IMG/VR virus record: IMGVR_UViG_3300025012_000043
Coordinates: 1-64,000 of that record
DNA length: 64,000 nucleotides
Strand: one strand, 5' to 3'
Source: a virus
Notes under the pieces: generated by a model
What the model was told of the DNA's origin: nothing
Seen by the model: the letters and a program-made list of their open reading frames with translations, nothing else
Database searches by the model: none
Shown: positions 4,844-36,290 of the stretch, piece by piece
How positions within the stretch are numbered: the first letter of the stretch is position 1
How the letters are laid out: each line of letters begins with the position of its first letter
Program-made: the position numbers and the translations under genes

Positions 4844-4845
4844 AT

Positions 4846-15299: not shown

Positions 15300-16541
15300 T
15301 TACTTTTTCTCTTCAAGAATTCCAAAAAGATTGTCGAGTTTGGTCTGCCGAATTTCCTTGGTTATCTTATTATTGCCATCACCAAGCCCTCGGACAGTAC
15401 CCTTTGGAGTAAGCTCTTCAGAAATCTCGGCAAACATAGTCTTAGATTCCTGTATGATTGCATCCATCTCATCTGGGTCTGATCCAATAAGAGAAGCCAG
15501 CAACCGTTTCTTCATTGTAGCAGGAAGCCCAGATTCCTGCAACTTCTTCTCTGCAACTGCCTTAGAAGTTACAGCGATAAGCTTCTCTTCAAGCTCTTCT
15601 ACTTTCTTGCCAAGATCCTCATTAGCTTCCTGTGCCTGAGTTGCAGCCTCTGCAAGTAGCTGGATCTGCTCATCACGCTCAGCAAGCACCTCTACAAACT
15701 CTCCCATATTAGCCTCCTCCAGCTTCTCAGTACCCTCAGGAACCTCTGCCTTAGCAACACTTTCAGTTACATTGGTATAAACTTCTGCAGTCTCACTCTC
15801 AACAAGATCAACAAACTCATCGATGAGTGACTTAGTATGTTCAGCCATTGCATCGATCGCCGCAGTTGCCTCAGCAAGAGCCTTCTCTCTAACACCATTA
15901 CTAATCTCTGCTACGATCTCTGGATTGGACTCCATTAACCCCTTTAGCGTAAGCTCTGTAGTCATCCCTTTCTCCTCCGTTACCTCTAAAATTGAAATAT
16001 CTGATTCATGAACGACTTGAATGTGCCCACCAGCTGACGCATCTGGAACAAAATCTACAGAATGCGGCTTTACAATGGCTTCTACAACATTTACTACATC
16101 ATCACCAATCTTCCCCATACGTGTTTTACCCATAGCATTAATGGATAGCCCAATTTCATTAAGCCAACCATTAGTATGGGCCTCATGTACCTTTTCCCAT
16201 AGGCCACTATCTCTAATCCCTATTTTTGCGCCGATCCCCTTCTCTTCAGGAATGTAATAGGATTCAAGAATGGTACCTACCCAATCCCTAAATGAACGGG
16301 CTGCTTTTCCCGTGGCTTCGGGAGATCCTGGTACAGGATGATCTACGTACATCTTCTTACCAATAAATAGTGGAGCCGCTGACTCTAAGCATTCTGGAGT
16401 GTAGTAATTCTTTCTTTTACTGAGTCCCGACTTAATTAATACCGCAGTGATAGTTTTCTTATCCACATCAACCTGAGGTGTGCCCTCAAATAACAGGATG
16501 TCCCCAACCATCTCCGTTTTTTGATCTACCTTTTTAGCCAA
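15300..16541 (-). CDS. Prohead protease / scaffold fusion
   Basis: G.S..KNYY, YVDHP, IGLSINA, SVDFV..ASAGG protease motifs followed by an acidic coiled-coil scaffold. Confidence 0.85.
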   Translation of the reverse strand: MAKKVDQKTEMVGDILLFEGTPQVDVDKKTITAVLIKSGLSKRKNYYTPECLESAAPLFIGKKMYVDHPVPGSPEATGKAARSFRDWVGTILESYYIPEEKGIGAKIGIRDSGLWEKVHEAHTNGWLNEIGLSINAMGKTRMGKIGDDVVNVVEAIVKPHSVDFVPDASAGGHIQVVHESDISILEVTEEKGMTTELTLKGLMESNPEIVAEISNGVREKALAEATAAIDAMAEHTKSLIDEFVDLVESETAEVYTNVTESVAKAEVPEGTEKLEEANMGEFVEVLAERDEQIQLLAEAATQAQEANEDLGKKVEELEEKLIAVTSKAVAEKKLQESGLPATMKKRLLASLIGSDPDEMDAIIQESKTMFAEISEELTPKGTVRGLGDGNNKITKEIRQTKLDNLFGILEEKK

Positions 16542-16609: not shown

Positions 16610-19600
16610 TTACACACCATACATTTGATGTGCAAGTAAACGTATCCTACTTAAAAATGCCTCACTATCTATCGTCTCACCAACAAACTGATTAATGGGC
16701 ACATGAACAAATTTATATTCACCATACGGGCTTAATATATCTTTAATATTCCCACGAACTGATGTGGCAATATCACTAACCTTATCTTCTCCGATCCGAC
16801 CTATCACCTTATCCCCAGGAGTTAATTCATTCTTCATATTAGCCAACACCTGTTTAATGGATCCTTCTATTTTATTAATAGCCTCAACATATTTCTCCCC
16901 ATATCCAGCTGGATTACCTTGCCCAACCTTAAGCACCCCAGTTTTAATTAACTCATCAATCTTTGATGGGAGTGAAAATGGGCTCATACCCTGCACACGC
17001 ATTAATGCATTTGATATCATCCCCCTATTTTTTAATGAAACATCCTTATCTTTAAGTGTAAATATATATTCATATATATTCTTATCTGGTGTAGCTGAGA
17101 CTTTTTTGATAACCGCCTGTCTTTTCTTAATATCGTCAAGCTTTTTAGATGACATTTTATCAAATGATATAGTAGGTGACGTTTCAACAACTCGGCCACC
17201 GATATTAACATCTATAGATACAAACCTAGATATATCAACCCTTGGGTCTGCCTTTTTCCACATGCCTATTAATTCTTCCTTGGTGGCATTATACATCATA
17301 CCATCAGGCCCAATAGTAATATTATTAATCTCTCTAGTTGGCCATCCACCAATGCCAACACGCATCCCCTGTGGGGTTATCTCAATTACACGAATAGCTT
17401 CTAAATCACTAGCAATACTAGTAGTGGAATCAATATAAAATTTCTTAACTACCGACTTAATTGTTGGATTATGCAATAAGTCTAATAATATAGTACGTTG
17501 GTTTTCTGGTAATCTTAATAATCTACCTTTAAATGCCTCATCAGTAAGTAATATTTTAGCCGAAGAACGCTGGGTACCCATTAATTTGCCGTAAATGTCT
17601 AGAACTTCTTTTTTGCCTAAGACATCCTTTTCAGTATCTCTAACAGTGGTATTAACTAAATCCTGTATTCTATATAATCCATCGTCAGCAAAACTAGTAG
17701 AATTAAATATACTATTACTAATATGATTCTTATTTCTCATAATAGGTCTCAGTCTAGCAGCAATGGCTTCATCTTCTGGTAAAGTAATAATGTCTTTGGC
17801 TAATTGTTGAAATATTTCAGTTCTATGAACAATTGACATATCGGCTAATGGTGCTACTCCCTCTACCCCAATATTAAACCATGGATCAATGGCCCTCATA
17901 AACTCACTCTGTAAAAAGCCACTATTTTCTTTTACTTTTTTATTGCGCATACCAATAGCCTTAGTATATGCTTCAGCGATAGCTGCTTCACTGGTATCTC
18001 CAGCTGCAACCTTACCCCATACCGCACGTTCTTCTTCAGCCATACCACTCAATTTAGTTATAAGTTTATTATTAATAAATTTGCCACCTAACATATTCCA
18101 CCAAAAACTAGCTTTATTAAATGTTTTAGTACTAGCTACTCTATTAATTAATGCCTGCAATGGCCCAGCCTCATTTGGATCAATCGGAATAAGTCCATTA
18201 ACTGATCTATTAAATGCTTCAGTGACTGAATTTTTAATGATACCACCAGGCCCAAACATCAGTCTCTTCCACGCAAGACTACTAATAGTTGTCATTGCTT
18301 TCTTTGGAGAATTCCATATATCAAATAAAGATGAATAAACCTCACTATTAGTAAACGTATTAAACATTAATTGTCTTACACTATTTGTTGCCATATCTTT
18401 CGCAAACACTTTGCCCACATTTTTACTAGCACTAACAATAAGTGCCTTTTTATCTATGGGTGCATCAACCCCAAATACACCTAGTGAATTAGCAAGATCA
18501 TGTTCATCACCAACCATCATTTGCCGGATATCAAATGGCTGCTTATTAAACCACATGATCCAATCTTCATCACTAATAGTTCCATCAGGCTTTATGGGCT
18601 TTATTAATTTACTAAGCCCATCACCAAACCCAGCAAAATCATCTGGCCCTATATCAAATTTTGCTCCAATGGGGACTCTTGGTTTGCGTGGTACTTGCTC
18701 TAATTCTTCTGCTGCAGAAGATATAGATTTAAACCATGGACGATATGTACATCTACAATTTGGATGTCTCGGCAATTGAGGACGTGGTTCTTCTGGTTTA
18801 TATAATATTCCATGGGTAGCCCTACAATATTTACATGTTCTTGAATCATTAATGGCTGTATATTCAAAATATCGAATCTGATCAGCATTATCAATATAAT
18901 TAGACATAGCCGACTGATTAAATGCCGTATACCCAGCATCACTAATCATCCCCTCAAGATCATCTGCAGCACGAGCATATGCCCCACGAACTTCATTAAC
19001 CGCTCCACCAACTGCCAAAGACGGCATGACGCCTTGTGCCATTTTTCTATTCATATCATTACCGGCCTTATTAACTCTACCAAGCAATCTATTTAAAACC
19101 GTATCGGCACGCTTGTCAAATATAGTATTCTGCCAATTGTCCCCTTCTCTTTCAATTTTATCCCACATAGCCATGAACTGTGGTCCAGTCATGTCCCATG
19201 GTAAAGGCTGTGCTACTGCGGCAATCTGATTCAATGAATCAGTGGTCGCCCTAGCACTTAATAAGTATGCCCCAGACGATGCCGCATTAACAATATTCTT
19301 AATCCCAGATAAAGTCCTTCTCGTCTCTTCACCAAATATCATCTCTGCAGTATTGGCTAAAGTGGTGCCTTGCTTAATCGCCGTATTAATAGCAAGTTTA
19401 CGCAATAATGACCCAATATCACCACGACCACCAAAATATTTAACAAATTTGGCCCCCTTTTTATAATAAGATTTGGCCGTGGCGGCATGCGTATATAGTT
19501 CTTTAATTGAATCTTCCGATACACCATTAAGTAAGCTACGCATGAACCCATTTATTGATCCTTGTACCTTATCTATGCGCACAACAGCTTCCTTGACTAT

Positions 19601-22600
19601 TTTATTCGTAATGACACCAGTGGCCACTACAGCACCAAATGCCTTATTTAAAGCATTGAGTTGCCATTCATTTGGTATACGCTCACGCATTACATTGATA
19701 ATACGATCTATCTTGTCCTCCATAGTTGTTTCAACAATCTTACCAAGTGTATCACGTATAGTTATATTGTCCGCATAAATGAATGAAGCCTTTAAATATT
19801 CTTCCAATAACTGCACTTCAGTTGGAGCATCACTTATATATCCTTTAAAGGGATCGCGCCATGATATATCAGAAAGCTTGCTCAATGATTGGGTTGGGTC
19901 AATAACCCCATTAATAATTGGAACAAATTGCCCGCCACTATCTTTGGTGATATCAGCAATCCCAATATATTTATATAATGGGATGCCACCATCTTTACTC
20001 ATTAATTTATATGCTTCCTTAAAAACGTTGTCATCCTTAAAATCTAATAAAATATTTGTTTCCTTGGATACCTTATTAGCTATATCCTTGCTGATTTTAC
20101 GCAAAATACGCATACGATCTTCAGTAAGCGCAGTAATATCTACCCCTTCATTAAATTTACTAACCAATTCACTAATTGGCACCCCATTACCAGATAAATT
20201 AGTAGTATATATCATGCGCTCATATGTATTAGCTAATTCTTTAACAAGATTAACATTCATAGATATCTTTTGAACTCTATTTGGGATCCTTATATCCTTA
20301 CCAACTTTTTCAACCACATCAACCGCACGCTTATATGCACCAAGTAACCCTTTTGCATTGGTTAGTTTGATAACCTCTTTAGTCAAAGCATCCGACTGAT
20401 TATAATATACCATGTTTTCAATCAACATTACTTCAGCTCGATATTTCGCTATTCTTGCACGAATATGAGCTAGGTCAGTCTGGATCTTTATATCCTTCAT
20501 TAGCGCCTTTACTTCTTCGCCAAGACTATTCTTAACTATATTCCGCTTTATTTCTCTCTCAGCATTTAAAAACATATTCCTTCTGTCTGCCGTAATAGTT
20601 TTTAATATTCTAACCTTATCTGCTTCAGCATTTGGCTTACTTGAATCATATCCTTTTTGTACCAATTCAGATAAAACGTCATTATAAACATCTCTTTTAG
20701 CTTTAGTGACCTCTGGTATATGCAATCTATCTAAATATTCACGCATTGACTGAATTTGCTGATCAGACATCTCAACAAAACCAGCTGGTAGTGCATCTAA
20801 TTTCTTTTTATGGTCTTTGATAGCCTCCATTAATTTAGAAACAGCAGAATCTCTATCCATAGAGATCGGTATTTTAATATCACCACTATCAAAATACCCA
20901 ACTTCGATTCTATACCTGGCCATGATATCCCCGGCCATTTGCTCGCCATTTGGTATTGAGTATGAGTTTAATATAGACATCTCATCAACTATGGCTTGCA
21001 TTGCATCTATAGCAGAAATATTATTAGCATGCATAAGAGCATACATATGTTCTACACTAGGTCGTAATCTTACATTATCCTTAAATTTATCCCATAATTT
21101 TGGCAAAAATTCATTAATAGAAATAGAAAATTTAGTCGTTATCCCATTAATATATTTTAATTCATCGTCAGTCAATGGTAACGTTATTGCTATATTTTTA
21201 AACTGTTGGATATTACCTGTATAAAACTCCGTATTTTTACCAACCCTCATCTTAAGTGCGCGTTCTATATTTATTATTCTTGTTTCAATAGTAGATAATG
21301 CACCACGGGCGGTAAAAAGATCAATATTTAAAGCTTCTATCTCACCAGCATCTAATAATATATCAAGTTTACTCAAACGGTCTTCTAATGATTTAATTTT
21401 TTCAATAAACTCCATCTTTTGGGCTACCAATCCCTTAATACGTAATCCTTTTTCATTAATCCCCCCCTTTAATTGCATATTTAAAACATAAAATGTCTCC
21501 TGATATTTTCTAAACCCACGCTGTGACGCCTCATTCAATCGTCCCTGTAATGTGGTAATTTTCTCTCCATATAATTTCTGCAATATAACATCATTTGTTT
21601 TTTCAAGTTCCACTGAAAATTTGTCAATCTGATGTACAATACGGCTCATTTCTGTATCATTGATGGGCCGCAGAATCTGATCAATCTCTATTTTAACCTC
21701 CGTATCTAATATCCCACCTGCATCTTTATACCATGTATGTAATATTTGCTCAATGCTCATATCCCGTTGCATCATAAGCCCAAAATTATGATATGTAGAA
21801 TTAATATATTTAGCCCCCATAAAAATATCACTTACTTCATCGAGTTCAGCTATCAATTTATTATACTCATTTTTATATTCATTCATCCATTCACTATTAC
21901 TCATCTTTTTACTCTGTTCAAATAGAATACCAAGCCTATCAAATATAGCTATTTGCCTAGAATTCATTTTAATATGTAGTCCAGCATCACCTATGCGATT
22001 AAGCTGCTCAATCAATTCTTTATATTCAGCCCAGTCTTGTGGACTAGCTGCCTTCCCAACGATAGTAAGTTTTTTCTGTAGTGCTACCATTTTATTTAAT
22101 GATTCAGTTTCATCTATCTGTTTAATATTTACAGGAGTACGTAACAATTCTTGTAATCGCTTAATCTCACCTAATATTAATCCTGTTTCAGTTTTATTAC
22201 CCTCTGCCTTCCGTAATGCCCTATATGCAGAAGATAACTGCATATCAATATTAGAAGTTGATAAAATATCGTATTTATCAACGAACATCTTACCACGTCC
22301 TTCAATTATAACCTTTCTACGTTCAGTAAGATCATTCAAGTCCACTAATAATTGATTAACCTTGTTCTGGTCATTAATCTTCCTAGCTTCTTCTATCTCG
22401 CCCCTCAATCTTTTCATTTTCTTATCAAAAGCATCAATCCCAGCGATAATAATACCAGATATATATTTTTGTTTATTGGGTAAAGAAGTACGGACCAGAT
22501 TATTTTTCAGCGCAATAGTAATATTAAGCTCATCAATAACTAAATCAATATTCTTAATAATTTCTTGATTAGTAGCTGTAACCTTTTCTTGTATTGGCCG

Positions 22601-25600
22601 CATCATTCTTTTAAATATATGTACTTCATCAAGCTTTGGCAAAGAATGAGTTAGATCATCAATGACTGAATGGATCGATTTTAATTCATCTGTTAATTCA
22701 TCCACAGTATGTAATACAAATCCACCATATGATGACCGCTCAGCAATCCTAATTGCTGATGGAGTATCCTTTTTTGCTAGCCCATTTAATTCGGCTCTTA
22801 ATTTCTTTAATATTTTATCTGCTGTCTTGATCCTATTATTTATATGTGGTGTACCAAGTTTACTTTTTAATTTGCCAATATACCCACCTAATTCATAGGG
22901 ACCCGTACCAACTAATTTCTTTATGGCTATATTTAATCTATTAATCCTAGCTAAACGCTTATCAACACTCATTCCAGTATTAATAATATCATTATTTATT
23001 GACGACAAAACATTATATAACTCTATTTGCCTCAAAATCTTTCCAGAATCTACCATCATAGCATTTAAAACATTGTCTTGGTTATATAATCCCTTAAGCT
23101 TATCAATTATATCTGATACTATACCAACTCTATCTATATCAACCTGTATCAAGCGTTTTTCAGTTATATCTTTGGTTTCTAAATATATCTTATTTAACGA
23201 TTCAAGTTTTTCTTGGATACCTTTGATAGACTCTATAGTACTACCATCAGATAATTTAACGCGGATCATCCAATCTTCTATAAATATAGGAGGCTTGGGT
23301 TGCCCGCCTATCCTAGGCTTAATCTTAAGATCCGCACTAACAAATGGGATGCCAACTAGCTTGCGCTCATACATAGCTATTTTCTCTAAAACATCATCAT
23401 ACAATGATGGCTTATATTTATAAGAAGGGCTTACTGCATTGCTTATAGTATTTAATATAATTAAATCTAATGCCTTACTAATTTTAGATATGGTTTCTGG
23501 CTCTGAGAATTTTAATTTTCTAAAATCTGGTACCCTACTATCTTGTATCCCAGCCTTTTCTAATATATCTATAATGCCATGCATCTTTTCTTCTAGAACC
23601 GTAGCGACATTACCTATATCATCAATAGTATATTCTTTACCATCAACAACCCCAATAGACCTAATATTAGTCTTGGCACGCAATAATAAACTTTCAATAA
23701 ACAACTTCCTGTCCTTATTCCTGCCCAATAATTGTTCTAATATAGGTTTTTGCTCATATCTACCTGCTATTTTTTTAATGTCCTCACCAATAGTCCCGCG
23801 AGTCAAGAAGTCTACAATAGACTTTGGATTTAAACTAATTTGTACACCTTGTGGAGATGGACCATTAATCCTATTAAATATGTCTGATTCATATTTAGAT
23901 ATTCTCTTCTTAATCCTTAAAACTTGCTCATGCACCTTACCATATTCAGTTACTTTCTTTTGATAGATTTTAAACCATTCATCACTTCTTATTAAAACTT
24001 GGTCATCTACACCAGCAGCCCTTAAAATATTTAAAAATGTTTCTTGCACCCCACCAGTGGTTTCATTTAATAATTTTACCCATTCATCCGGATTAACCTT
24101 CATTTTCTCTTTGGCTATATGTGTAACTTCAACGGTTTGGTCTAATAATTTCTTTAAACTAATACTATTCAATTTGTCATAATATTGCATATATATCGCA
24201 CTTGGGTCATCAACAATCTTGGCGTCAACGACAATATTAAATCTATCTTTCAATATGATCCGTAGGGCCATAGCAACTAATCCACGACTATCATAGCTGG
24301 GATTAATTAATAAATTACTGTATATTTTTCTGTCAGCATTATAATTTTCAAATAAATATTTCTCTATCCCACCTAATGGTTTTTCATGCAATACCTTTAA
24401 TATCCTAAATCTAGGCTCAATCAACGCAAAATTTGGATCATACATTACTTGATTACTGGCAATGACTATTCTGCCATCATCTAAAGCATATGTACGTATA
24501 TACGATTTAAGCATGTCATCCTTATATTCAAATTTGGGCATGACACGTACACTTTCCGACCAACGCTTTAAATCATTAAATCTATCGAATTCTACACCAG
24601 CCAATGTTTTTTCTCGTACTAATAAATTTCTATATTCTTCTGCCTCTTTTTGTGTTAGCCCACGTTGTAGGCTGGCGAACGGTACCTCTATTGATCCTGT
24701 GGCCAAGGCTGATATAAATTCATAGGTACGCTCACCCATATATCTACGTAAAGCACCAACAATATTTCTACCATAATGATCTTTAGATATACCAGACATA
24801 CCCAACAATGAATTTGACAAATCAAAGGCAAATTCGTCTAATATAATACCATGCTTTTTAGCGACTTGTCGTAAGGCTGCGGTAAATACTGGCGAATCTA
24901 TATTAATCAACAATGCCTTATTAAGAGTCTTCCTTGCTCGCGGCAAATTCCACCCAGCGACTTTAAATGTTGAATTAATGTTAACCCCAGCACTACGTAG
25001 GTATTTCTCTAATTCAGTAGCTACCTCTCTAGATGTTTTAACATTATAATCCTTAGTTGATTTTAAAACACCATCGACTATACCAAGTATGGCCTCACCT
25101 AAATCATTTTGTGGTAGGTATCTATATAAAACATCACTTTCAAGATCTTTAAATATTCTTGCCCTTCTGGCGTCACTAGTAGTACGTACTATCTTAAATT
25201 GTTGATCAACCTCATCAATCTTTTCCCATTCCTTGGTTAACATTTCTTTAGCTAATGATAAGTGTAAAAAATCCAACACGGTTTCCTTAAATGGGACGAC
25301 TTTAGATAGATGCACAATATCATCACTACGTACCGAGAAAGCCTTCCCTACCAATACTAATTCTTCTTGTATTGTAAGCTGCATATCTAATTCTGTTTGC
25401 TTCCTAAATAAACTTTTGATCTTTCTCTCTAGATTGCCAATCTTTAAATTATCTTTAATCTCATTCGCATTTTCTCTAATAAGAACTTTATATGCTGCAT
25501 CACGCTCAATAATTATATTATTCAATTTAACCCTTAAATCATGAGCCTTGGTCTCTGCTTTGGTGATATTGATCTTCAAGATTCCTTTATCAACATTGCG

Positions 25601-28600
25601 GGACAACAATGTTAATAGTTTAAACCTATCAACCGATACAACATCAAAATTATCAGCATATCGTACAGTCAAATTCTCAACCAGATCTTTAAGCGGCCCC
25701 TTTATCTGCCCTGGATCATAGTCAACTACCATTGGAACTAATTTACCTAATTCTTCTGGTTTTGTTGATGGGACCATGACTTTCTGTGACTCTATGAAAT
25801 CAATCACATCCTTTAAAATAAACTGAACCCGCAATTCAGATTTCTGCTTTGCCGTCAATGATACTAATTTACTGGCTGATTTAGATATATCTTGTATCAC
25901 CAAACTAACATCGGTACCTAATTCTGCAGCCTTTTTAAATTCATCATTATATTTTTGATTTAAAAATATAAAATCATTAATACTTTTTGTGTTTAATTCG
26001 GCAATAATGTTGGCCACAGTATCTTTACTAACCTTTTTGCCGATAGCGATATCTGATATAAACTGATCTACTTCATTGGCAGCATTATTAAATTTACGAG
26101 CAAATTGTACTTGAATATACTTCTTCACATATATTTCAACAAGATTATTCTGGGCAATAGTTTCTATCTGTTTAGGTGGTAATTTGACAGCTTTAACCAA
26201 ATTGCTAAATACCTTTTTGAGAACCTCATAATCATGTTTAAGCATTGAAGCAGTATAAAATGGATCATGGACGCTTAATTGTCCTGTTAATTCGCCTACC
26301 TTACTTTTTAAGGCAGTGATCTGCTCCTGTAATTCAATTAAACGTCTAGTATATTTTGGTTCCATTAGTACTTTACCAGCATTTGCTAATACATACAATC
26401 TTTCAGATTGGACCACACCTAAATCATTTAGAGCCTTTGATAATTCATCGTATAAATCCTTCTTAACTTTCGTATCCTTTAATTTTTTAATATTAATCTC
26501 AGCAATTGATATCCCGTTACGTAATTTGGACACATTACGACGCAACAGAACTGGCCTAGACATTTCAATATCCAACTGCTCCTTCATGTCTTTTAAAGAA
26601 ATAGTTTGCTTATTTATTTGTTCATTAATATATGCCAAATTAGCCACTTTAACATCGTCATATTGTAAAACATTTTGTGCTAACCTATCTTCAACGACCT
26701 TCATATTTGCTTCATGGGCACTAATAATATCACGTATAATAGTAATATCATTTTCTAGTTTAGTAATCTCAGTTTGTACTCTACCAGCAATATCACCACC
26801 AGCCTTTGAAAACTCATTCTTCTTTATATCTAATATTCTATTCAATCTTTCTACCTGGTCATTTGGTTGAATCTTCATTGTGTATATATATTGTGCATCA
26901 TCGGCTATGACACTTGGCAACTGTTTGATTTTTAATACCACACTATCTAATTCAGCATTGAGTGTCCCAAGTAAATCAGTATGCCTGATTATCTCAGCGT
27001 CAATACGTTCGGCCCTAGGTAATTCCTTGATATTGCCAATATTACTCTCAATAACTACCAATCTATTACGAGCTGCCAATATCTCTTGATCTAACTTGTC
27101 AACACCAAGTGAAGTGGCCTTACCTACCATATTTCTTTTATTAAGTTCATCAAAATTATTTAATACATCATTAATATCTATAATTTGTTTATTGGCATCA
27201 TCAGTCTTTTCTTTGGCTAATTCGTCCAATCTAATACGTAATACGTACTTCATACGCGTAACTACTTCAGGATTAAAAAATGGTACGCCACCATTTAATT
27301 GTTGTATGATCTCTCTCGTATTTGCAGATATATCACCAGAAGTAGCAATATCGCTAAATATATGGGTCCATTTATTAATTATCTGCTCACGATTTCTATT
27401 TAACCCATCTAATTCTTCTTTAATATTTTTATATTCTGCGCGTAATTCACTAATCCCAGATTTACCAATGATCCAATTATATTCAGCCTTAAGTTCAATT
27501 ATTTTCTTCTTAATATTTTCTACTTCGCCATTTATTGTATCCTTAGTAGCGAATAAATTAATAAATTTAACAGGTGATCCATTGATACTATTCCAAAAAT
27601 CAGTAGTCTTAGGCAGTACTCTTGCCATTGATGAACCAATATTTGATAACCATTCTTTGGCAATAATATTCACAACATTACTACGTAATTTAAACCAGTC
27701 TGCTAGGTTTGACGAATCAACCCTAGGTAACATCATTTTATCAATATCTGAAATAAGCTGTGACTTGGTTGTGGTTAGTGTTACAAAATACCCATATTTT
27801 TGTTCTAATTTGCTTAATGTTTCTTTCTCAATATTTGTTAATACTGCTTTATGTCTTAATTTATATAACTCTTCACCACCTATAAATTTACCATTGTCAT
27901 TCGCAAACCACAACCATCTTTCATTAATGACCCCAAAAGCCCTAATTTTACTAGCTAAATCTTCTTCTCTCTTAATACTATTACGTAATAATTCAATCTG
28001 ATATAATACCTTATCTTGTAATGTTTTGTCATCCACTACACGCGCATATCTTAAGTCTATATCAATAAGTTGCCGTAACATGAAATCATTATATATTGCA
28101 TTCAATGATGGATTGAATATTAACGTTCTACTGTCCATATTAACAAAATGCGAGCGCATGGTTTTTAAAGCATCTAGCTTAGCATATAATTCAGTGGCTT
28201 TTTGGGGTTCTTTTGTAAGCGCCGCATATGCCTCTTTGATTTGTAAATCAATATATGATGATGATATGGATTGTACTGGGATACTTTGATCAAACCAAAT
28301 TGACACACCAAAGGCACTACCAATCTTTGTGGCTGAAGTTATGATACCATCAGTTTCTGGGATATATCCATATATATCTTTACCAGCTTCGCCCAAATAT
28401 TTGGTCTTAATATTGCTATATTTCTGCCATTTAATATTAATGCCTTCTATACCCTTTTCTCTATTCAGCCCAACTAATCCACCATAGAGTTGCCTAATGC
28501 CTTTTTGATACTCTTCCATAGCCATCTTTTCTATAACTTCCGACCCCATGGCATCTTGTATCTTATCTGTAAGAATACTTTTTAATTTCCCTTCTGCTTC

Positions 28601-31600
28601 ATTGATATATTCAATATCCTGATTGGTAAGCCCAATTCTAGATATCTCTTTATTCATTTCATAAAAAGAAGTTTGTATATCTCTGTCAATACTTGTCATA
28701 TCAGTAGTATATTGTGTTCTAGTTTTGGCCGATATTAATTCAGTAGCAGTATGGATCATTGAATTAAATGATATATCTTTTGGTAAAACGCCCTCAGCAC
28801 CAATTATCCTAAATCTATTCTCCATACTTTCAACGATTATTGAAAATTTGGCATCATGTGGTTTAAATCCTTTACCACTATTTAAAATTATTTGAGTATA
28901 TGGGTCTAATTCACCATTTATATTTCTAAACCCAAGGTTCATAGTACGTATATTATTATTCTTATCCACATATACAACAACAGGAAATTCAGCCGACTCC
29001 CATCCCTTTAATCTACCATCCGGTGCCTTGCTTCTTAGTATTTCAAATAATTTATCCCCTCCTTCTTTAACGACTCTACCTACTTGCCTACGTTTCTCTT
29101 CATTAACCCTACTGGATATCATTGGAGTAATCTTCTCAAGATTCTCAATACCAATATTGTCTATTTCGCTCTTCATAATAGACTTTTGTATTGGTGTGCC
29201 AATATCATCAACAATTACCCTTATTCTATTATATATATCTAATTGAGTATCTGGGTCTATAGCACTCTTAGTAATAGTACTAATATCATCAATATCATCG
29301 ACTGGTGCCTTTGCAATTATGGTTTGATATTTCCTAATCTTATTACCATCACGTGATATGTCATAATGATATCCAGACCCAATTATTGATGGCTTAGAAT
29401 TTATACCAAATAAATTAAAATTTTCAATTACACTTTTACGCTCTATATCAGATAGAGCATAATATTTATATAATTTTGGATAAACCTTTTCATCTGGTAT
29501 AAACCCACCAAACATCTTTGATGGAAATTCTACAACTAATGCATCAAGCCCCTTGGTACCGTGCGATATAATCTCTGCTTCAGTAATCAATGCATTAGCT
29601 TGAGCTGGTGTGGCATTTATAGGAATATGCAATTTATATACAGCCATCGCACCTACTCGATCTGGGAATAAAAATGCTCTGTCTCCCAATAACCCGAACC
29701 TTTTCATTAAATCAAATGGTAATCCTGGTGCTCCATCTGCTCCAGTTATTAATGACGGAGATATAACCTCTACAGTACTAACCATTTCACCTTTCATACT
29801 TAGAATGATGTGGTCAGTTGATAATCTAAAACCATCATCAATAATATTCTCACGCATAAACCTTTTAAATGGTATGTCAATTCTAATAGAATAACTCTTT
29901 AATCTTTGAATCGCTTTTTCTGCTTTATTGATGGTCTGATCAAGCTCTTCTAACCGAAAAGCAATAGCATCAACTATCATGCCAATGTGTCTATCAACAT
30001 CTCCATCAGATGCAAACTCAGCCTTAATTGATGGTAATATAATATCCATATATTTATGTGGATCTGATAAGGAAATCTCACCAGAAATAACATTAAATAT
30101 CTCTTCGTTTATCTTATTCTTTTTGGTTATATCAATAAGGGATGTTCTTTTCTCATGTAACTCTTGTATTTTACGTAATACAACCATTAATCTTGCTTTT
30201 TCAGAATTCCTACTATCTAACACTGATAAAACACTTGATACCTCACCGATAGCATCCGGATTGATCTTCCCAGCTCTAATGATACTAAAACCACCAATGG
30301 CATCATCGGCATATAAATCAGGGTTAGATGCATCAAATTGGGCAAACTTATCTATATCTAACTTTACAATCTTTGAACGAATATCTACTATATCATTTTT
30401 TAACAAAAGCCGGTTACGCTTAAACTGCTCCATATTAAGTATAGAAAGTGCTGATGCACTCTCTTCTATTATATCTGGTATTTTTCCAATATCTTTGGCT
30501 TGGTCTTCGGGCATATTAGAAGCAATAGCCGCAAACCTAGTCTCTAACTTTGAAAGTTCTTCAACTTTACTACTTAACTGCATTACAAGAACTTCTCTAT
30601 CATCTAATACTTTACGCAATAGTGCATTACTAGCGCTCTTTGTTTTATTCTCGGTGACCAGATTATGCCCAATAGACTCAAATAACTTTTTATTAGCATC
30701 TTTTACTCGTATTTTAACTTCAGAAAATATGTTACTTGCACCAGTATTAAAATGTTCTTCCTTTAGTTTATCTACATCTGCCAGATCAAGTAATACAAAA
30801 CGTCTTTGTTCAGTAGGTAAATATCCAAGACCACCCATTACAAAATCAACTGCTTCATCTAATTTCTGGTTATATTTTGCCCTTCCAGGGATATTCTCCA
30901 ATTCATCCAATTCTTTGGTAAATCCATTAACTTTAAACTTAAAATAATCATTTATTAATTGTTTTAGTTTATTACTATCTCTAATATTAGTAGCATCTTC
31001 CTTAATTAAATCTTCAATTCTATGTATGTCATATTCAAATTTACCAAATTCTTCTGCTGAACTGAATGGCCCATGAGGATGTAACAAATACAACATTGGT
31101 GGTTGTAATGTTTGGATCTCTGTCAAAATTGACGCCACACGACCACCTATTAACGTATCAAACCCATAATAAATTGGTGGGTCTTTAAACAAATTATTGG
31201 CCCCACCAAAATATTTAATAACATTATCAAGCTCTTTAGTTAGTGCCGCATATTCTTCTGGGGATTTGATCTTATCAATCTTATTTAATCTGGTCAATAA
31301 ACTACTAACTCTATCCATACTAATACCTTGCTCAAATGAACGATCAAAAAGTTTTGTGACGTCACGTATTTTAGTTAGTTGATTAAATTTGATTTCTAGT
31401 TCAACCCGTAATTCATCTAATATATATGAGTTAGTAAGTGATTCTAAAAATAACATCTCTTCTACTGGTTTAATTGAGGTATTGCCCTTAAGATATGAAC
31501 CAACAGCCGAATTTACTGATTTGCTGTTATTTTTGATCCAATCTAAAAATCCTCCATATGAATCTTTATAATTAATATGATATAATAATTTCTTTCTGGT

Positions 31601-33961
31601 CGCATCAATAGTTTCCGATGAAGCGCCTTTAAAATATGCTAAATCTAACTTCATAAAGGTACTTAAATCTTTAGCATTGTCTCTTGTTATATTAATATCT
31701 ATATCACTCAACCCCAATGAATATAGGATATTATTTAACGTAGTATTATTAGTAGCAACTTCTTGTATTATTAATTTACTAATATTCTTAATAAATTTAC
31801 TTCTTTGTATAATAAACTCGGTACCCTTATCTCCCGAGTTTAGATTTTTAAAAAGTTTCTTATCTATATTGGTGAATGCTCTTGCAGCCCTTCCTTTAAA
31901 TACTCTAACTAATTTTTGTGAATCATCAATTTCTGATAACATACCAGAAGTAGATACCATATTAATAGCATCTTGCTCATGTTTAAACCAATCGATCCTT
32001 GGACTAAAATGCGGGACCACCCACGTATAATCTCTTATTAATCTATTAAATTCGGCCCATGCATCAATACTAGACACAAACCTGGCTGAACCATCAGCCC
32101 TTTTAATACTTTGCCAATCAATGATTTTATCAAATTCGTCTTGTGATAATATGGCAGTTCTTATAGAAGTAATCAAACTTTCTTTGTATGGTGCCGTCCT
32201 TAAATCTACTCCCTGTCCACTAATCTTAAATTTCTTAACTATTTCCTCTATAGTAACTGGATCCTTTGGCCGCACATGGAGATTGATCCATTCCTCGGCA
32301 CTAGTATTAATTACACTAGGGTCCGCAACAACATTAAATGTTTCACTTGATATGCCATATTTAATTAAAGGATCCGGCTCAACAACATCACCCATAATAC
32401 CTGGTGGTATATCAAGATTTGATGCATTGACAAATTTATTTATCTCTTCTACAGCATCCATTAATATAGGCAATTGTCTTTCATCATCTAGTGATACCAA
32501 AGAAATATCTTCAATTCCAGTATAAGCCTCTCTACGAGCCTCCCTAGATCTAATTTGTGATCGTAATATAGCATCTTGAACAATATCCCCATTAGACTGC
32601 TCGCCTGCTCGTATGGCAATGTCATTATAACTAATACCAATGATATCTGGTCTTACATTATGTTTAATAGGTGATAATCTAACATCAACGTCATCCAAAA
32701 TATCACTAGCGATTAATCTCTTCTTAATTGACTCGGCCACTACTCCAGCTTGCATATTATCATCAGTATTCATCAATTGAATAAATTTGGGTCTTTTAGT
32801 ACTACGCTGATATGATCTAACTATTGCATCACCCATATCTTCACTAGATACATATTGTGATGCTCTACTAATAAATTCTAGATCATTAATATAATAATTA
32901 GATATATTACTATATCTCGCATCTATATATAATATATCAATATCATTTTTGAAGATTTGCTCTAGTACACCACTATCTTTAACTGGTGGGATATATGCTA
33001 TTGTTTTATTGCTAGGCTTGTGTTTTAATAATATGGCAAATGAATGATCATCAACTTTAATACGTTGCATAATAAAATCTTCAACTTCTTGTGTGGCGTC
33101 ACCAGACATCAGCCCAACATTGTTGGCTAATTTGAGCGCTTCACCTAATGGTAATAGTTTACCACTACGAAATTGCGTATAGATTAGCCCACTATCTTTA
33201 TCCATCCAAACATTTACTCTTGGGTTCTGTTTAATTATTTTAGTGGCTAATCTAGAATAAGCCACATCATTATTTGGCAGAACCAAATCTGTATAATTTC
33301 TACTAACTATAGTCGCACCTACTTCATCGAGTAATGTATTTAGTTGTCCTATTAAACGGCTACGTTCTTGTTGTATTTTTTGTGGTTCTGATTTTATGCC
33401 AGCATACGGATTAACACCAACTAACATTTTTGCTGGGGCGGTTATCACTTCATTAATCTGTAAAATCTTTTTATTTACATCTTTGATTTCATTTTGTAAT
33501 TTGCTAATCCTGTTAATCTCTTCAACACTCACTACTTGATTAAACCCAGCCTCAACAGAAAAAGCATGCATACTATTATTACCAACGCCAATGGAAAATC
33601 TTTGTTTACCACTATCAACAAGAATTTGGATACCATATCTATTACCTATACCACTAACACGTAATGCCTCGGTATTTGCACCATTAACAACAGGCTTCCT
33701 AACAATAAGGTCAGCTATTCTTTTATCTGTTGCGTCTATTAACGAATCGGCAGTATACCCGAGCGCGGCACGGTCTAATTGTACTACTCCCTCTTCACCA
33801 GCTATTGTCTTGTATTCAGAACGCAAATTCTCTAACTTAAGGTCTAGCTCTTGAATACGCTCTTGGGCTTCATCACTCCCGTCATTATTTACGAGTGCTA
33901 AATAGTGATCAGTATATGCCGCAACATACCTTTTTATAAACCCATTATGAGATTCTGCCAC
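16610..33961 (-). CDS. Giant (5783 aa) MuF/SPP1 gp7-like minor head protein
   Basis: Uninterrupted 17,352-bp ORF between portal and protease; GGAGG RBS and GTG start overlapping the portal stop; MuF motif YTAINDSRTCKYC..HG..Y.......PRHPNCRC at about aa 5030-5075. Confidence 0.85.
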   Translation of the reverse strand: MAESHNGFIKRYVAAYTDHYLALVNNDGSDEAQERIQELDLKLENLRSEYKTIAGEEGVVQLDRAALGYTADSLIDATDKRIADLIVRKPVVNGANTEALRVSGIGNRYGIQILVDSGKQRFSIGVGNNSMHAFSVEAGFNQVVSVEEINRISKLQNEIKDVNKKILQINEVITAPAKMLVGVNPYAGIKSEPQKIQQERSRLIGQLNTLLDEVGATIVSRNYTDLVLPNNDVAYSRLATKIIKQNPRVNVWMDKDSGLIYTQFRSGKLLPLGEALKLANNVGLMSGDATQEVEDFIMQRIKVDDHSFAILLKHKPSNKTIAYIPPVKDSGVLEQIFKNDIDILYIDARYSNISNYYINDLEFISRASQYVSSEDMGDAIVRSYQRSTKRPKFIQLMNTDDNMQAGVVAESIKKRLIASDILDDVDVRLSPIKHNVRPDIIGISYNDIAIRAGEQSNGDIVQDAILRSQIRSREARREAYTGIEDISLVSLDDERQLPILMDAVEEINKFVNASNLDIPPGIMGDVVEPDPLIKYGISSETFNVVADPSVINTSAEEWINLHVRPKDPVTIEEIVKKFKISGQGVDLRTAPYKESLITSIRTAILSQDEFDKIIDWQSIKRADGSARFVSSIDAWAEFNRLIRDYTWVVPHFSPRIDWFKHEQDAINMVSTSGMLSEIDDSQKLVRVFKGRAARAFTNIDKKLFKNLNSGDKGTEFIIQRSKFIKNISKLIIQEVATNNTTLNNILYSLGLSDIDINITRDNAKDLSTFMKLDLAYFKGASSETIDATRKKLLYHINYKDSYGGFLDWIKNNSKSVNSAVGSYLKGNTSIKPVEEMLFLESLTNSYILDELRVELEIKFNQLTKIRDVTKLFDRSFEQGISMDRVSSLLTRLNKIDKIKSPEEYAALTKELDNVIKYFGGANNLFKDPPIYYGFDTLIGGRVASILTEIQTLQPPMLYLLHPHGPFSSAEEFGKFEYDIHRIEDLIKEDATNIRDSNKLKQLINDYFKFKVNGFTKELDELENIPGRAKYNQKLDEAVDFVMGGLGYLPTEQRRFVLLDLADVDKLKEEHFNTGASNIFSEVKIRVKDANKKLFESIGHNLVTENKTKSASNALLRKVLDDREVLVMQLSSKVEELSKLETRFAAIASNMPEDQAKDIGKIPDIIEESASALSILNMEQFKRNRLLLKNDIVDIRSKIVKLDIDKFAQFDASNPDLYADDAIGGFSIIRAGKINPDAIGEVSSVLSVLDSRNSEKARLMVVLRKIQELHEKRTSLIDITKKNKINEEIFNVISGEISLSDPHKYMDIILPSIKAEFASDGDVDRHIGMIVDAIAFRLEELDQTINKAEKAIQRLKSYSIRIDIPFKRFMRENIIDDGFRLSTDHIILSMKGEMVSTVEVISPSLITGADGAPGLPFDLMKRFGLLGDRAFLFPDRVGAMAVYKLHIPINATPAQANALITEAEIISHGTKGLDALVVEFPSKMFGGFIPDEKVYPKLYKYYALSDIERKSVIENFNLFGINSKPSIIGSGYHYDISRDGNKIRKYQTIIAKAPVDDIDDISTITKSAIDPDTQLDIYNRIRVIVDDIGTPIQKSIMKSEIDNIGIENLEKITPMISSRVNEEKRRQVGRVVKEGGDKLFEILRSKAPDGRLKGWESAEFPVVVYVDKNNNIRTMNLGFRNINGELDPYTQIILNSGKGFKPHDAKFSIIVESMENRFRIIGAEGVLPKDISFNSMIHTATELISAKTRTQYTTDMTSIDRDIQTSFYEMNKEISRIGLTNQDIEYINEAEGKLKSILTDKIQDAMGSEVIEKMAMEEYQKGIRQLYGGLVGLNREKGIEGINIKWQKYSNIKTKYLGEAGKDIYGYIPETDGIITSATKIGSAFGVSIWFDQSIPVQSISSSYIDLQIKEAYAALTKEPQKATELYAKLDALKTMRSHFVNMDSRTLIFNPSLNAIYNDFMLRQLIDIDLRYARVVDDKTLQDKVLYQIELLRNSIKREEDLASKIRAFGVINERWLWFANDNGKFIGGEELYKLRHKAVLTNIEKETLSKLEQKYGYFVTLTTTKSQLISDIDKMMLPRVDSSNLADWFKLRSNVVNIIAKEWLSNIGSSMARVLPKTTDFWNSINGSPVKFINLFATKDTINGEVENIKKKIIELKAEYNWIIGKSGISELRAEYKNIKEELDGLNRNREQIINKWTHIFSDIATSGDISANTREIIQQLNGGVPFFNPEVVTRMKYVLRIRLDELAKEKTDDANKQIIDINDVLNNFDELNKRNMVGKATSLGVDKLDQEILAARNRLVVIESNIGNIKELPRAERIDAEIIRHTDLLGTLNAELDSVVLKIKQLPSVIADDAQYIYTMKIQPNDQVERLNRILDIKKNEFSKAGGDIAGRVQTEITKLENDITIIRDIISAHEANMKVVEDRLAQNVLQYDDVKVANLAYINEQINKQTISLKDMKEQLDIEMSRPVLLRRNVSKLRNGISIAEINIKKLKDTKVKKDLYDELSKALNDLGVVQSERLYVLANAGKVLMEPKYTRRLIELQEQITALKSKVGELTGQLSVHDPFYTASMLKHDYEVLKKVFSNLVKAVKLPPKQIETIAQNNLVEIYVKKYIQVQFARKFNNAANEVDQFISDIAIGKKVSKDTVANIIAELNTKSINDFIFLNQKYNDEFKKAAELGTDVSLVIQDISKSASKLVSLTAKQKSELRVQFILKDVIDFIESQKVMVPSTKPEELGKLVPMVVDYDPGQIKGPLKDLVENLTVRYADNFDVVSVDRFKLLTLLSRNVDKGILKINITKAETKAHDLRVKLNNIIIERDAAYKVLIRENANEIKDNLKIGNLERKIKSLFRKQTELDMQLTIQEELVLVGKAFSVRSDDIVHLSKVVPFKETVLDFLHLSLAKEMLTKEWEKIDEVDQQFKIVRTTSDARRARIFKDLESDVLYRYLPQNDLGEAILGIVDGVLKSTKDYNVKTSREVATELEKYLRSAGVNINSTFKVAGWNLPRARKTLNKALLINIDSPVFTAALRQVAKKHGIILDEFAFDLSNSLLGMSGISKDHYGRNIVGALRRYMGERTYEFISALATGSIEVPFASLQRGLTQKEAEEYRNLLVREKTLAGVEFDRFNDLKRWSESVRVMPKFEYKDDMLKSYIRTYALDDGRIVIASNQVMYDPNFALIEPRFRILKVLHEKPLGGIEKYLFENYNADRKIYSNLLINPSYDSRGLVAMALRIILKDRFNIVVDAKIVDDPSAIYMQYYDKLNSISLKKLLDQTVEVTHIAKEKMKVNPDEWVKLLNETTGGVQETFLNILRAAGVDDQVLIRSDEWFKIYQKKVTEYGKVHEQVLRIKKRISKYESDIFNRINGPSPQGVQISLNPKSIVDFLTRGTIGEDIKKIAGRYEQKPILEQLLGRNKDRKLFIESLLLRAKTNIRSIGVVDGKEYTIDDIGNVATVLEEKMHGIIDILEKAGIQDSRVPDFRKLKFSEPETISKISKALDLIILNTISNAVSPSYKYKPSLYDDVLEKIAMYERKLVGIPFVSADLKIKPRIGGQPKPPIFIEDWMIRVKLSDGSTIESIKGIQEKLESLNKIYLETKDITEKRLIQVDIDRVGIVSDIIDKLKGLYNQDNVLNAMMVDSGKILRQIELYNVLSSINNDIINTGMSVDKRLARINRLNIAIKKLVGTGPYELGGYIGKLKSKLGTPHINNRIKTADKILKKLRAELNGLAKKDTPSAIRIAERSSYGGFVLHTVDELTDELKSIHSVIDDLTHSLPKLDEVHIFKRMMRPIQEKVTATNQEIIKNIDLVIDELNITIALKNNLVRTSLPNKQKYISGIIIAGIDAFDKKMKRLRGEIEEARKINDQNKVNQLLVDLNDLTERRKVIIEGRGKMFVDKYDILSTSNIDMQLSSAYRALRKAEGNKTETGLILGEIKRLQELLRTPVNIKQIDETESLNKMVALQKKLTIVGKAASPQDWAEYKELIEQLNRIGDAGLHIKMNSRQIAIFDRLGILFEQSKKMSNSEWMNEYKNEYNKLIAELDEVSDIFMGAKYINSTYHNFGLMMQRDMSIEQILHTWYKDAGGILDTEVKIEIDQILRPINDTEMSRIVHQIDKFSVELEKTNDVILQKLYGEKITTLQGRLNEASQRGFRKYQETFYVLNMQLKGGINEKGLRIKGLVAQKMEFIEKIKSLEDRLSKLDILLDAGEIEALNIDLFTARGALSTIETRIINIERALKMRVGKNTEFYTGNIQQFKNIAITLPLTDDELKYINGITTKFSISINEFLPKLWDKFKDNVRLRPSVEHMYALMHANNISAIDAMQAIVDEMSILNSYSIPNGEQMAGDIMARYRIEVGYFDSGDIKIPISMDRDSAVSKLMEAIKDHKKKLDALPAGFVEMSDQQIQSMREYLDRLHIPEVTKAKRDVYNDVLSELVQKGYDSSKPNAEADKVRILKTITADRRNMFLNAEREIKRNIVKNSLGEEVKALMKDIKIQTDLAHIRARIAKYRAEVMLIENMVYYNQSDALTKEVIKLTNAKGLLGAYKRAVDVVEKVGKDIRIPNRVQKISMNVNLVKELANTYERMIYTTNLSGNGVPISELVSKFNEGVDITALTEDRMRILRKISKDIANKVSKETNILLDFKDDNVFKEAYKLMSKDGGIPLYKYIGIADITKDSGGQFVPIINGVIDPTQSLSKLSDISWRDPFKGYISDAPTEVQLLEEYLKASFIYADNITIRDTLGKIVETTMEDKIDRIINVMRERIPNEWQLNALNKAFGAVVATGVITNKIVKEAVVRIDKVQGSINGFMRSLLNGVSEDSIKELYTHAATAKSYYKKGAKFVKYFGGRGDIGSLLRKLAINTAIKQGTTLANTAEMIFGEETRRTLSGIKNIVNAASSGAYLLSARATTDSLNQIAAVAQPLPWDMTGPQFMAMWDKIEREGDNWQNTIFDKRADTVLNRLLGRVNKAGNDMNRKMAQGVMPSLAVGGAVNEVRGAYARAADDLEGMISDAGYTAFNQSAMSNYIDNADQIRYFEYTAINDSRTCKYCRATHGILYKPEEPRPQLPRHPNCRCTYRPWFKSISSAAEELEQVPRKPRVPIGAKFDIGPDDFAGFGDGLSKLIKPIKPDGTISDEDWIMWFNKQPFDIRQMMVGDEHDLANSLGVFGVDAPIDKKALIVSASKNVGKVFAKDMATNSVRQLMFNTFTNSEVYSSLFDIWNSPKKAMTTISSLAWKRLMFGPGGIIKNSVTEAFNRSVNGLIPIDPNEAGPLQALINRVASTKTFNKASFWWNMLGGKFINNKLITKLSGMAEEERAVWGKVAAGDTSEAAIAEAYTKAIGMRNKKVKENSGFLQSEFMRAIDPWFNIGVEGVAPLADMSIVHRTEIFQQLAKDIITLPEDEAIAARLRPIMRNKNHISNSIFNSTSFADDGLYRIQDLVNTTVRDTEKDVLGKKEVLDIYGKLMGTQRSSAKILLTDEAFKGRLLRLPENQRTILLDLLHNPTIKSVVKKFYIDSTTSIASDLEAIRVIEITPQGMRVGIGGWPTREINNITIGPDGMMYNATKEELIGMWKKADPRVDISRFVSIDVNIGGRVVETSPTISFDKMSSKKLDDIKKRQAVIKKVSATPDKNIYEYIFTLKDKDVSLKNRGMISNALMRVQGMSPFSLPSKIDELIKTGVLKVGQGNPAGYGEKYVEAINKIEGSIKQVLANMKNELTPGDKVIGRIGEDKVSDIATSVRGNIKDILSPYGEYKFVHVPINQFVGETIDSEAFLSRIRLLAHQMYGV

Positions 33962-36008: not shown

Positions 36009-36290
36009 TTAGACCGAAATATGACTATCAATATAGCATTTTCTATGATACTTTTGCGTCTCCCATTGATGATCTGGTGTATGAACATCACGTTGAATAA
36101 CTTTATTACAGTGTTGGCACATTTTAGTATCTGCAACACGTGCAGTATAAATAGCAGCATTCTTACGGCCACGGTTACGACGCATAATCCTTGCGCGTTT
36201 ACATCGACGGCCACAATAAACGGCGTTTTCATATACTGGGAAAAATGGCTTACTACAATTCTCATTAGCACAGATACGTTCTTCAGACAT
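36009..36290 (-). CDS. Small Zn-finger protein
   Basis: CANENC..F......YC...C and CQHC...YH..C. Confidence 0.65.
   Translation of the reverse strand: MSEERICANENCSKPFFPVYENAVYCGRRCKRARIMRRNRGRKNAAIYTARVADTKMCQHCNKVIQRDVHTPDHQWETQKYHRKCYIDSHISV

Follow-up and report, generated by a model that had tools for sequence, protein, structure and literature searches.

In the present study, we analysed a 64,000-nucleotide stretch of viral DNA (the window), comprising positions 1 to 64,000 of the IMG/VR record IMGVR_UViG_3300025012_000043 (112,589 bp; G000), and found that 27% of it is taken up by one gene on the minus strand, which encodes a MuF protein of 5,783 amino acids (aa), here called the giant. 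The results indicated that this protein carries a genuine MuF/gp7 domain in the canonical slot next to the portal gene, that it is a real gene under constraint, and that about 5,500 of its 5,783 residues (~95%) are unlike anything in the sequence and structure databases. The giant is the phage's own and only minor head protein of the MuF/SPP1-gp7 type, enlarged about fifteen-fold. By analogy with SPP1 gp7, we propose that it may be an internal virion protein, built on an enlarged MuF head protein, which the portal recruits and which serves in structure or ejection, and we give this proposal roughly an even chance of being right.

The MuF module and its gene

The MuF domain was located near the C-terminal end of the giant by profile searches. 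It was observed that PF04233 (Pfam) matched aa 5008-5073 (E 8.9e-9; 36.5 bits against a cut-off of 29.6), that TIGR01641 phageSPP1_gp7 (NCBIfam) matched aa 4989-5075 (51.4 bits against a cut-off of 39.65), and that nine PHROG head-morphogenesis or minor-head families matched the same stretch. All of these matches fell at aa 4900-5080, where they had been expected by the first-pass annotation, which was made from the DNA letters alone. The profile match was reproduced in the orthologue of G001, a 178,008-bp relative in IMG/VR, and in both G000 and G001 the giant was the single MuF match above the family cut-off. The motif CKYC...HG...PRHPNCRC was found at 87% of the protein's length, followed by 712 aa, which agreed with the position and the C-terminal remainder of about 700 aa estimated earlier.

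HMMER alignments revealed that ordinary MuF proteins of 300-500 aa align to a module of the giant (~aa 4795-5110) from their residues 12-50 to about residue 300. Using the last 1,200 aa of the giant as the query against 1.84 billion representatives, we surveyed the best 150 HMMER hits, of which 144 were ordinary MuF proteins. None of these 144 was longer than 1,153 aa; their MuF domains began within the first 662 aa, and typically between aa 130 and 250. The first-pass annotation had described the bulk of the giant as N-terminal to MuF, and the survey bore this out. We then modelled aa 4790-5783 with AlphaFold2 (40 sequences), which gave a predicted local distance difference test (pLDDT) score of 66 overall and of 76-93 in the MuF part (aa 4949-5079). 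Compared with BFVD by Foldseek, this model matched phage minor capsid and head-morphogenesis (MuF) models at E 1.9e-5 to 1e-3 with a probability of 1.00, in a table that lists matches without aligned ranges. PDB fold searches with the models yielded nothing specific, and the best PDB sequence match was portal chain 8qqn (E 0.029), on the MuF stretch. The MuF block was also the best-conserved part of the giant, with 62-79% identity within clade A (described below) and 38 of 100 columns invariant at aa 5001-5100. The features of the giant gene are listed below.

16610..33961, minus strand: giant MuF gene, 5,783 aa, 653.8 kDa, pI 8.6
33959..33975, minus strand: GGAGG ribosome-binding site and GTG start overlapping the portal TAG, read directly
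19580..33961, minus strand: N-terminal orphan extension, aa 1-4794, non-repetitive, cysteine-free, with no transmembrane segment and no family match
28262..30064, minus strand: best-conserved block of the extension, aa 1300-1900, holding 85 of the 510 four-lineage invariant columns
18632..19579, minus strand: canonical MuF module, ~aa 4795-5110, equal to a whole ordinary 300-aa MuF protein
18743..18946, minus strand: MuF profile match (PF04233 of Pfam, TIGR01641 of NCBIfam)
18749..18835, minus strand: zinc-type motif CxxC...H...CxC, aa 5043-5071, containing the giant's only four cysteines
16613..18631, minus strand: C-terminal extension, aa 5111-5783, conserved in all lineages, with no Pfam or PDB sequence match
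16613-17407, minus strand: C-terminal alpha/beta domain predicted at aa 5519-5783, AlphaFold pLDDT mostly 83-96

The open reading frame (ORF) of the giant begins with GTG and runs through 5,783 codons without an internal stop, according to both the ORF list and the translation. It accounts for 15% of the 112.6-kb record, and the corresponding gene for about 10% of the 178-kb relative. At the start junction (GGAGGatgatTAGTG), the portal TAG and the giant GTG overlap by one base (TAGTG), and GGAGG stands 7 nt upstream of the GTG. The same overlap is present in G001. The giant gene is translated right after the portal gene, from this overlapping stop and start. These readings confirmed what had been proposed from the letters, namely one giant ORF in the portal-adjacent MuF/gp7 slot and its coupling to the portal.

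The head module lies wholly on the minus strand, in the order TerL, portal, giant, a 413-aa scaffold/protease-like gene, a 166-aa gene and the major capsid protein. Its annotated genes other than the giant are as follows.

37071-38855, minus strand: TerL, 594 aa, first gene of the head module
33961..35997, minus strand: portal protein, 678 aa (phrog_10963, E 2.2e-32), 79% identical to the G001 portal
15300..16541, minus strand: scaffold/protease-like head protein, 413 aa (phrog_29592, E 1e-9), 84% identical to its G001 counterpart
13718..14740, minus strand: major capsid protein, 340 aa (phrog_4523, E 6e-74)

The gap between the giant and the 413-aa gene is 68 nt, and the G001 orthologue of the latter has an additional weak scaffold match. 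As this neighbour is scaffold/protease-like by profile only, it is not a proven protease. The slot had been described as lying between portal and protease; the description holds on the portal side, with a protease-like gene on the other. No small (<150 aa) ORF of the immunity type was found directly downstream of the giant, where the 413-aa gene comes next.

Relatives, cysteine exclusion and unclassified extensions

To our first question, whether the gene is real, the assemblies gave a clear answer. A 90%-identity cluster contained ten full-length members of 5,783 aa from JGI, ENA and Logan, with 0-4 differences from the window copy, and at least 10 independent assemblies gave this length. The DNA was detected in 20 runs, which came from 16 groundwater, soil and sediment studies, with no RNA run listed among them. 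Contigs of four further runs, mapped on the giant gene, showed nine single-nucleotide polymorphisms, six of them synonymous, and no indels. One low-depth contig from a single groundwater run joins position 25963 to 29026, skipping 3,062 bases with a shorter side of 25 bases; this joint was seen in no other run and is probably an assembly artefact. Apart from it, we found nothing in favour of the explanation that the giant arose by mis-assembly or from genes fused by sequencing errors. The assemblies of identical length, the lack of indels and four diverged full-length relatives, which keep one frame open over more than 17 kb, speak against an artefact, and we regard its probability as negligible.

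The four relatives were recovered by three routes: P0003 by a word-index search, the G001 protein by a portal-based scan of IMG/VR, and P0024 and P0025 by HMMER in the 1.84 billion representatives. P0003 (5,910 aa) is 44-48% identical to the giant and collinear with it end to end. The G001 gene (152186-169708; 5,840 aa) represents a third lineage, 41% identical to the giant and 36-38% to P0003, in a record that is 92% complete by CheckV. The second clade (B) consists of P0024 (5,912 aa) and P0025 (5,741 aa), both from Logan contigs only. These two are 45% identical to each other over the whole length and 21-28% identical to the giant in collinear blocks (aa 224-473; 808/902 to 2137/2565; 4029-4107; 4769-5596). 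In all five lineages, which form two deep clades, a single open frame of 5,741-5,912 aa was observed (length spread ~1.3%), collinear end to end within each clade and block-wise between clades. The distance from the MuF zinc motif to the C-terminus is 693-716 aa in all five. Of the 5,783 columns, 510 were invariant across four lineages and 400 across five, with peaks at aa 1300-1900, 3000-3200, 4000-4100 and 4900-5200.

Each of the five giants contains exactly four cysteines, all in the CxxC...CxC site of MuF. The other ORFs of the record average 1.95% cysteine, from which about 113 would be expected in the giant. In this phage group, cysteine makes up 0.15-0.74% of the portal, capsid and scaffold proteins, against 1.3-3.4% of most replication, nucleotide and sugar enzymes and 0.8-1.4% of SbcC-like proteins. 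A 1,674-aa tape-measure-like protein and a 329/338-aa protein encoded after the head genes have none. The 329-aa protein (8468-9457), cysteine-free like the relative's tape-measure-like protein, gave no family match. Across the record, cysteine content therefore sets the virion proteins (at most 0.74%) apart from most enzymes (mostly at least 1.3%), and the giant shares the chemistry of the particle proteins, notably that of the tape-measure type, which travels down the tail tube. Proteins that pass narrow export channels in unfolded form, among them flagellar and type III substrates and the passengers of autotransporters, typically contain little cysteine. That the giant and the tape-measure protein both exclude cysteine speaks mildly for a role as a structural internal or an ejected protein.

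The giant diverges faster than its neighbours. In three pairwise comparisons, the portals were 79-81% identical and the giants 37-46%. Between G000 and G001, the giant (41%) was the most diverged gene over 300 aa, against 77% for TerL, 79% for the portal and 84% for both scaffold and capsid. Such fast divergence fits a host-facing or a loosely constrained structural protein, yet the order and the length of the giant were kept.

We further analysed the two extensions. The I/K/D/L-rich composition noted earlier was recovered (I 10.3, L 9.1, K 8.8 and D 7.2%). AlphaFold2 modelling covered two windows, aa 1150-2100 and aa 4790-5783, with about 3,850 aa outside them. The model of aa 1150-2100 (four sequences) had a pLDDT of 47, with ~55% helix and ~11% strand and with moderately confident alpha/beta stretches at about aa 1380-1500 and 1660-1730. 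In the best-conserved block, alpha/beta domains were predicted at about aa 1384-1567 and 1654-1724, and conserved alpha/beta domains at aa 1380-1760 carry invariant D/E/H/K/R residues. A fold search with the model of aa 1150-2100 returned generic helical hairpins only, and the block at aa 1300-1900 had no relatives among shorter proteins, in PDB or in the ESM Atlas. In the model of aa 4790-5783, a helical part at aa 5179-5249 was also predicted with confidence. Heptad periodicity was patchy along the giant, indicating that it is not one long coiled coil. Of the first-pass description of the extension as helical/coiled-coil, the helix-rich character was supported in the two modelled windows, but alpha/beta domains are interspersed and the heptads are patchy.

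Searches for a known identity of the extensions gave negative results. Pfam, NCBIfam and PHROG returned nothing reproducible besides MuF, either for the giant or for its G001 orthologue. PDB sequence searches (aa 1-5000, aa 4801-5783, and profiles of aa 1300-1900, MuF and the C-terminal tail) gave nothing meaningful, and two windows searched in the ESM Atlas gave no usable match. In 50,697 GenBank phages, tblastn found matches at the MuF domain only and none for aa 1-3000, while blastn with the portal-TerL region found no match. No relative of the giant was found in the GTDB species genomes. Word-index protein searches, including those with aa 1300-1900 and those among shorter proteins, recovered only the giant itself, fragments and one relative. 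The extension thus resolved into none of the characterised giant virion families against which these searches tested it. Self-BLAST at E 10 detected no internal repeats, and no paralogue of the giant occurred elsewhere in G000 or G001. A motif scan found no Walker A, DEAD, DPPY, HExxH, DxDGD or GDD motif in the giant, which upheld the reported absence of RNA polymerase, methyltransferase and helicase motifs. At the level of sequence, no polymerase motif, profile or PDB match pointed to an N4-type single-subunit RNA polymerase, the confident structure models covering the smaller part of the chain. Pfam and PDB sequence searches detected no recognisable toxin domain in aa 5111-5783 of the giant or in its relatives, the fold of the C-terminal domain not having been searched separately. 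In none of the five giants did a 19-aa window exceed a Kyte-Doolittle value of 1.41, so that transmembrane-level hydrophobicity was absent. The trans-envelope conduit envisaged in the first-pass annotation consequently found no hydrophobicity support, as far as the classical membrane-inserting type is concerned. The proposed cleavage motif [ILV]xE[ASG] was not enriched in the giant (21 seen against 18.2 expected), and one site was conserved.

The phage and its other genes

G000 is a 112.6-kb fragment (76% by CheckV) that is syntenic with positions 70.6-178 kb of G001. A genome of about 180-190 kb was estimated. The tail module, which lies beyond the end of G000, was read in G001, where it comprises a 195-aa major-tail-like protein (phrog_807, E 7e-10), two small ORFs, the 1,674-aa cysteine-free protein and a 724-aa protein with a weak Prophage_tail match. 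As this is the siphovirus order, the phage probably has a long, non-contractile tail. At the usual 0.15 nm per residue of tape measure, should it apply to the 1,674-aa protein, this tail would be about 250 nm long. The Pfam families for sheath, PhageMin_Tail and Baseplate_J gave no match in G001, which is not evidence of their absence. For replication, the phage encodes, among others, a DnaE-type polymerase and a primase-helicase, together with SbcCD and a ribonucleotide reductase that contains an intein.

Several further differences and features were observed. In a comparison of 36009-38855 of the window with 146893-149847 of G001, TerL has 594 aa here and 984 aa in G001, with 77% identity over 478 aa. 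A 263-aa ORF (36283-37074) adjoins TerL in G000, and its closest G001 match lies elsewhere in that genome. These differences point to an intein or mobile insertion in either the G000 or the G001 terminase gene. At 56497-59241, a class I/II-type ribonucleotide reductase large subunit contains an intein splicing domain (PF14890, aa 277-421). Inside the replication operon, a TnpB/Cas12f-like gene (49171-50247; OrfB_IS605 and TNB domains) closely follows the DnaE gene and directly precedes that of the SbcD-like phosphoesterase. It has no BLAST match in G001, where about 200 bp separate the orthologues of DnaE and SbcD. Outside the window, at 88529-89578 of G000, a 349-aa protein is 89% identical to part of a 733-aa G001 protein (89339-91540), a difference that a fusion, a split or an intein could account for. 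Genes for glycosyltransferases and methyltransferases are numerous among the late genes (813-7760, 39879-41970 and 54019-55077), and the tail region of G001 encodes a 727-aa protein combining GT2, GT9 and methyltransferase domains.

Possible roles of the giant protein

Previous studies have reported that SPP1 gp7 enters the procapsid in few copies by binding the portal, and that it is dispensable for assembly, although virions without gp7 are only ~25% infectious (PMC6316719). The portal-binding route is thought to load MuF-fused toxins too (PMC6316719, PMC5576092, PMC5512222). The giant resembles SPP1 gp7 and Mu gpF (gp30) in its domain above the curated cut-offs, in the position of its gene after the portal and in its single MuF copy. 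These two proteins have about 300-400 aa, whereas the giant is some 15-19 times longer, with about 4,800 aa before MuF and about 700 aa after it. An SPP1 gp7-like entry by portal binding would be the expected mode for the giant.

MuF is also a hub domain of polyvalent proteins, which reach 12,242 aa (on a plasmid) and are encoded among late genes (PMC5512222). Both MuF-anchored cargo and giant polyvalent proteins are known concepts. The MuF toxins (Jamet et al. 2017, PMC5576092) and those polyvalent proteins that contain MuF (Iyer et al. 2017, PMC5512222) use it as the virion-targeting part of a much larger late-gene protein, and MuF may do the same here. The 712 aa after the zinc motif exceed the C-terminal extension of at least 100 aa by which MuF polymorphic toxins are defined (Jamet et al. 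2017), and the giant is encoded among virion and late genes, as polyvalent proteins are (Iyer et al. 2017). In contrast to both groups, its bulk is N-terminal, with no detectable toxin or enzyme domain and no immunity-type ORF downstream. Polyvalent proteins, moreover, are typically mosaic, whereas the architecture of the giant is fixed across lineages. A polyvalent protein is defined by two or more distinct effector domains, enzymatic or DNA-binding; Pfam, NCBIfam and PHROG detected MuF alone in the two orthologues, and confident structure models covered the smaller part of the giant. In the literature, we found no description of a MuF protein with any one of these features: this size (5,741-5,912 aa), an N-terminal bulk, a complete absence of recognisable cargo domains, an architecture fixed in two deep clades, or a total exclusion of cysteine.

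Two further kinds of large phage protein were compared. The virion RNA polymerase of coliphage N4 (gp50) has about 3,500 aa (PMC13434306). It is a very large single chain that is carried in the capsid and expelled at infection, as may be presumed for the giant by analogy, and it sets a precedent for giant proteins passing a phage tail; N4, however, is short-tailed, and its polymerase has no MuF anchor. The giant is about 1.65 times as long, lacks a polymerase, methylase or helicase signature and belongs to a phage with the gene order of a long non-contractile tail. P1 DarB and T7 gp16 are other large capsid-internal proteins that are ejected. Tail tape-measure proteins resemble the giant in being long, rich in helix and free of cysteine, and in conserving length better than sequence. 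They are encoded in the tail module, whereas the giant lies in the head module with MuF, and G001 has its own tape-measure-like gene of 1,674 aa, indicating that the giant is not the tail ruler. As a candidate tape measure, the giant had matched phrog_167 at aa 2386-2705 (E 7.6e-11). This match was not reproduced in the G001 orthologue, and in view of the separate tape-measure-like gene we reject it as a compositional or coiled-coil match.

The SPP1 gp7 precedent, the gene position and the cysteine chemistry make a portal-recruited internal virion protein the most likely explanation. A structural or ejection role is favoured over a polyvalent enzyme array, since enzyme signatures were absent, the architecture was fixed, and order and length were kept despite fast divergence. 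On this proposal, the giant would be translated right after the portal gene, and its MuF module would bind the portal during procapsid assembly, as in SPP1 gp7, bringing a few 654-kDa chains into the head. The remaining chain would be a structural internal protein, for example a core associated with the DNA end or the portal, which may pass out through the tail together with the DNA or before it and help to start infection. The cysteine exclusion, the collinearity and the lack of catalytic signatures suggest that it is probably not an enzyme array.

Several points weigh against this proposal. Packaging, MuF docking and ejection are drawn from the analogy with SPP1 gp7. Cysteine poverty is common to all virion proteins here and supports 'virion' rather than specifically 'ejected'. 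The AlphaFold model of aa 1150-2100 is poor, and with the ~3,850 aa outside the folded windows there is room for hidden, diverged enzyme folds; the invariant charged residues of the predicted alpha/beta domains at aa 1380-1760 could be catalytic. We know of no precedent in long-tailed phages for a 654-kDa chain passing a tail of about 250 nm. In addition, clade B comes from Logan contigs only, the gene context having been read in clade A. A bolder form of the proposal, which we consider unlikely, is that the giant represents a class of single-chain, capsid-internal 'pilot' proteins of long-tailed phages. Such a protein, a 650-kDa chain that is cysteine-free and largely helical, would be tethered to the portal by MuF, threaded through the ~250-nm tail with or ahead of the DNA, and would build or line the envelope passage or coat the DNA end. 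Its conserved length would then be the distance to be spanned, and it would be the counterpart of several separate ejection proteins in short-tailed phages.

The main rival explanation is that the giant serves in assembly only and has no role in the host cell. Anchored by MuF at the portal vertex, it would act as an internal core, or as a scaffold that sets the size of the large capsid required for a ~180-190 kb genome, and would either be cleared by the head protease or stay behind as an inner body. The classification of MuF as a head-morphogenesis domain, the gene position directly before the scaffold/protease-like gene, and the helix-rich, non-enzymatic appearance agree with it. A length held within ~1.3% across proteins just 21-28% identical is also expected of a ruler, and the sequence diverges fast with length and order kept. 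However, SPP1 assembles without gp7 (PMC6316719), the phage has a scaffold-like gene besides the giant, and the cleavage motif is not enriched. The 400-510 invariant columns and the defined alpha/beta domains suggest more than a spacer. We therefore consider the assembly-only role unlikely.

The first-pass annotation had also suggested a multi-effector anti-defence polyprotein, that is, a string of diverged enzymatic or anti-defence domains delivered with the DNA and maybe cut by the head protease. The use of MuF as a hub, the gigantic sizes and the late-gene location of polyvalent proteins (PMC5512222) are in line with it, fast evolution fits an arms race, and the conserved alpha/beta domains carry invariant charged residues. 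Nevertheless, no Pfam, NCBIfam, PHROG or PDB sequence match was obtained outside MuF in the two orthologues, and no Walker A, DEAD, HExxH, DPPY or polymerase motif was seen. No gain, loss or shuffling of domains was seen between lineages, whereas polyvalent proteins are typically mosaic, and [ILV]xE[ASG] was not enriched and had a single conserved site. The results disfavoured this explanation, which we judge quite unlikely. Finally, the MuF domain might be a relic, and the giant might build an intracellular structure or act in the cytoplasm during infection; its packaging is presumed by analogy, and most of the giant is unrelated to any virion protein family. Against such a non-virion role, the giant is the sole MuF protein above the cut-off, the MuF block is its best-conserved part, and its translation is coupled to that of the portal. 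Its cysteine content is also like that of the virion proteins, and unlike that of the cytoplasmic enzymes, of the same phage group. This makes a non-virion role very improbable.

MuF proteins are a known route for loading extra protein into the capsid via the portal, and the cargoes described so far, either small toxins or recognisable enzymes, are C-terminal fusions. The phage lineage studied here devotes about 10% of a 180-kb genome to a single MuF protein, about 95% of which is unclassified. Should the giant prove to be packaged and ejected, we would know of no larger protein delivered by a tailed phage, and its ejection would provide a test case for very large proteins crossing a long tail. 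If it is instead an internal core or ruler, it would bear on the sizing of large capsids. Whichever explanation holds, the ~5,500 conserved, unclassified residues are a rich target for structure determination.

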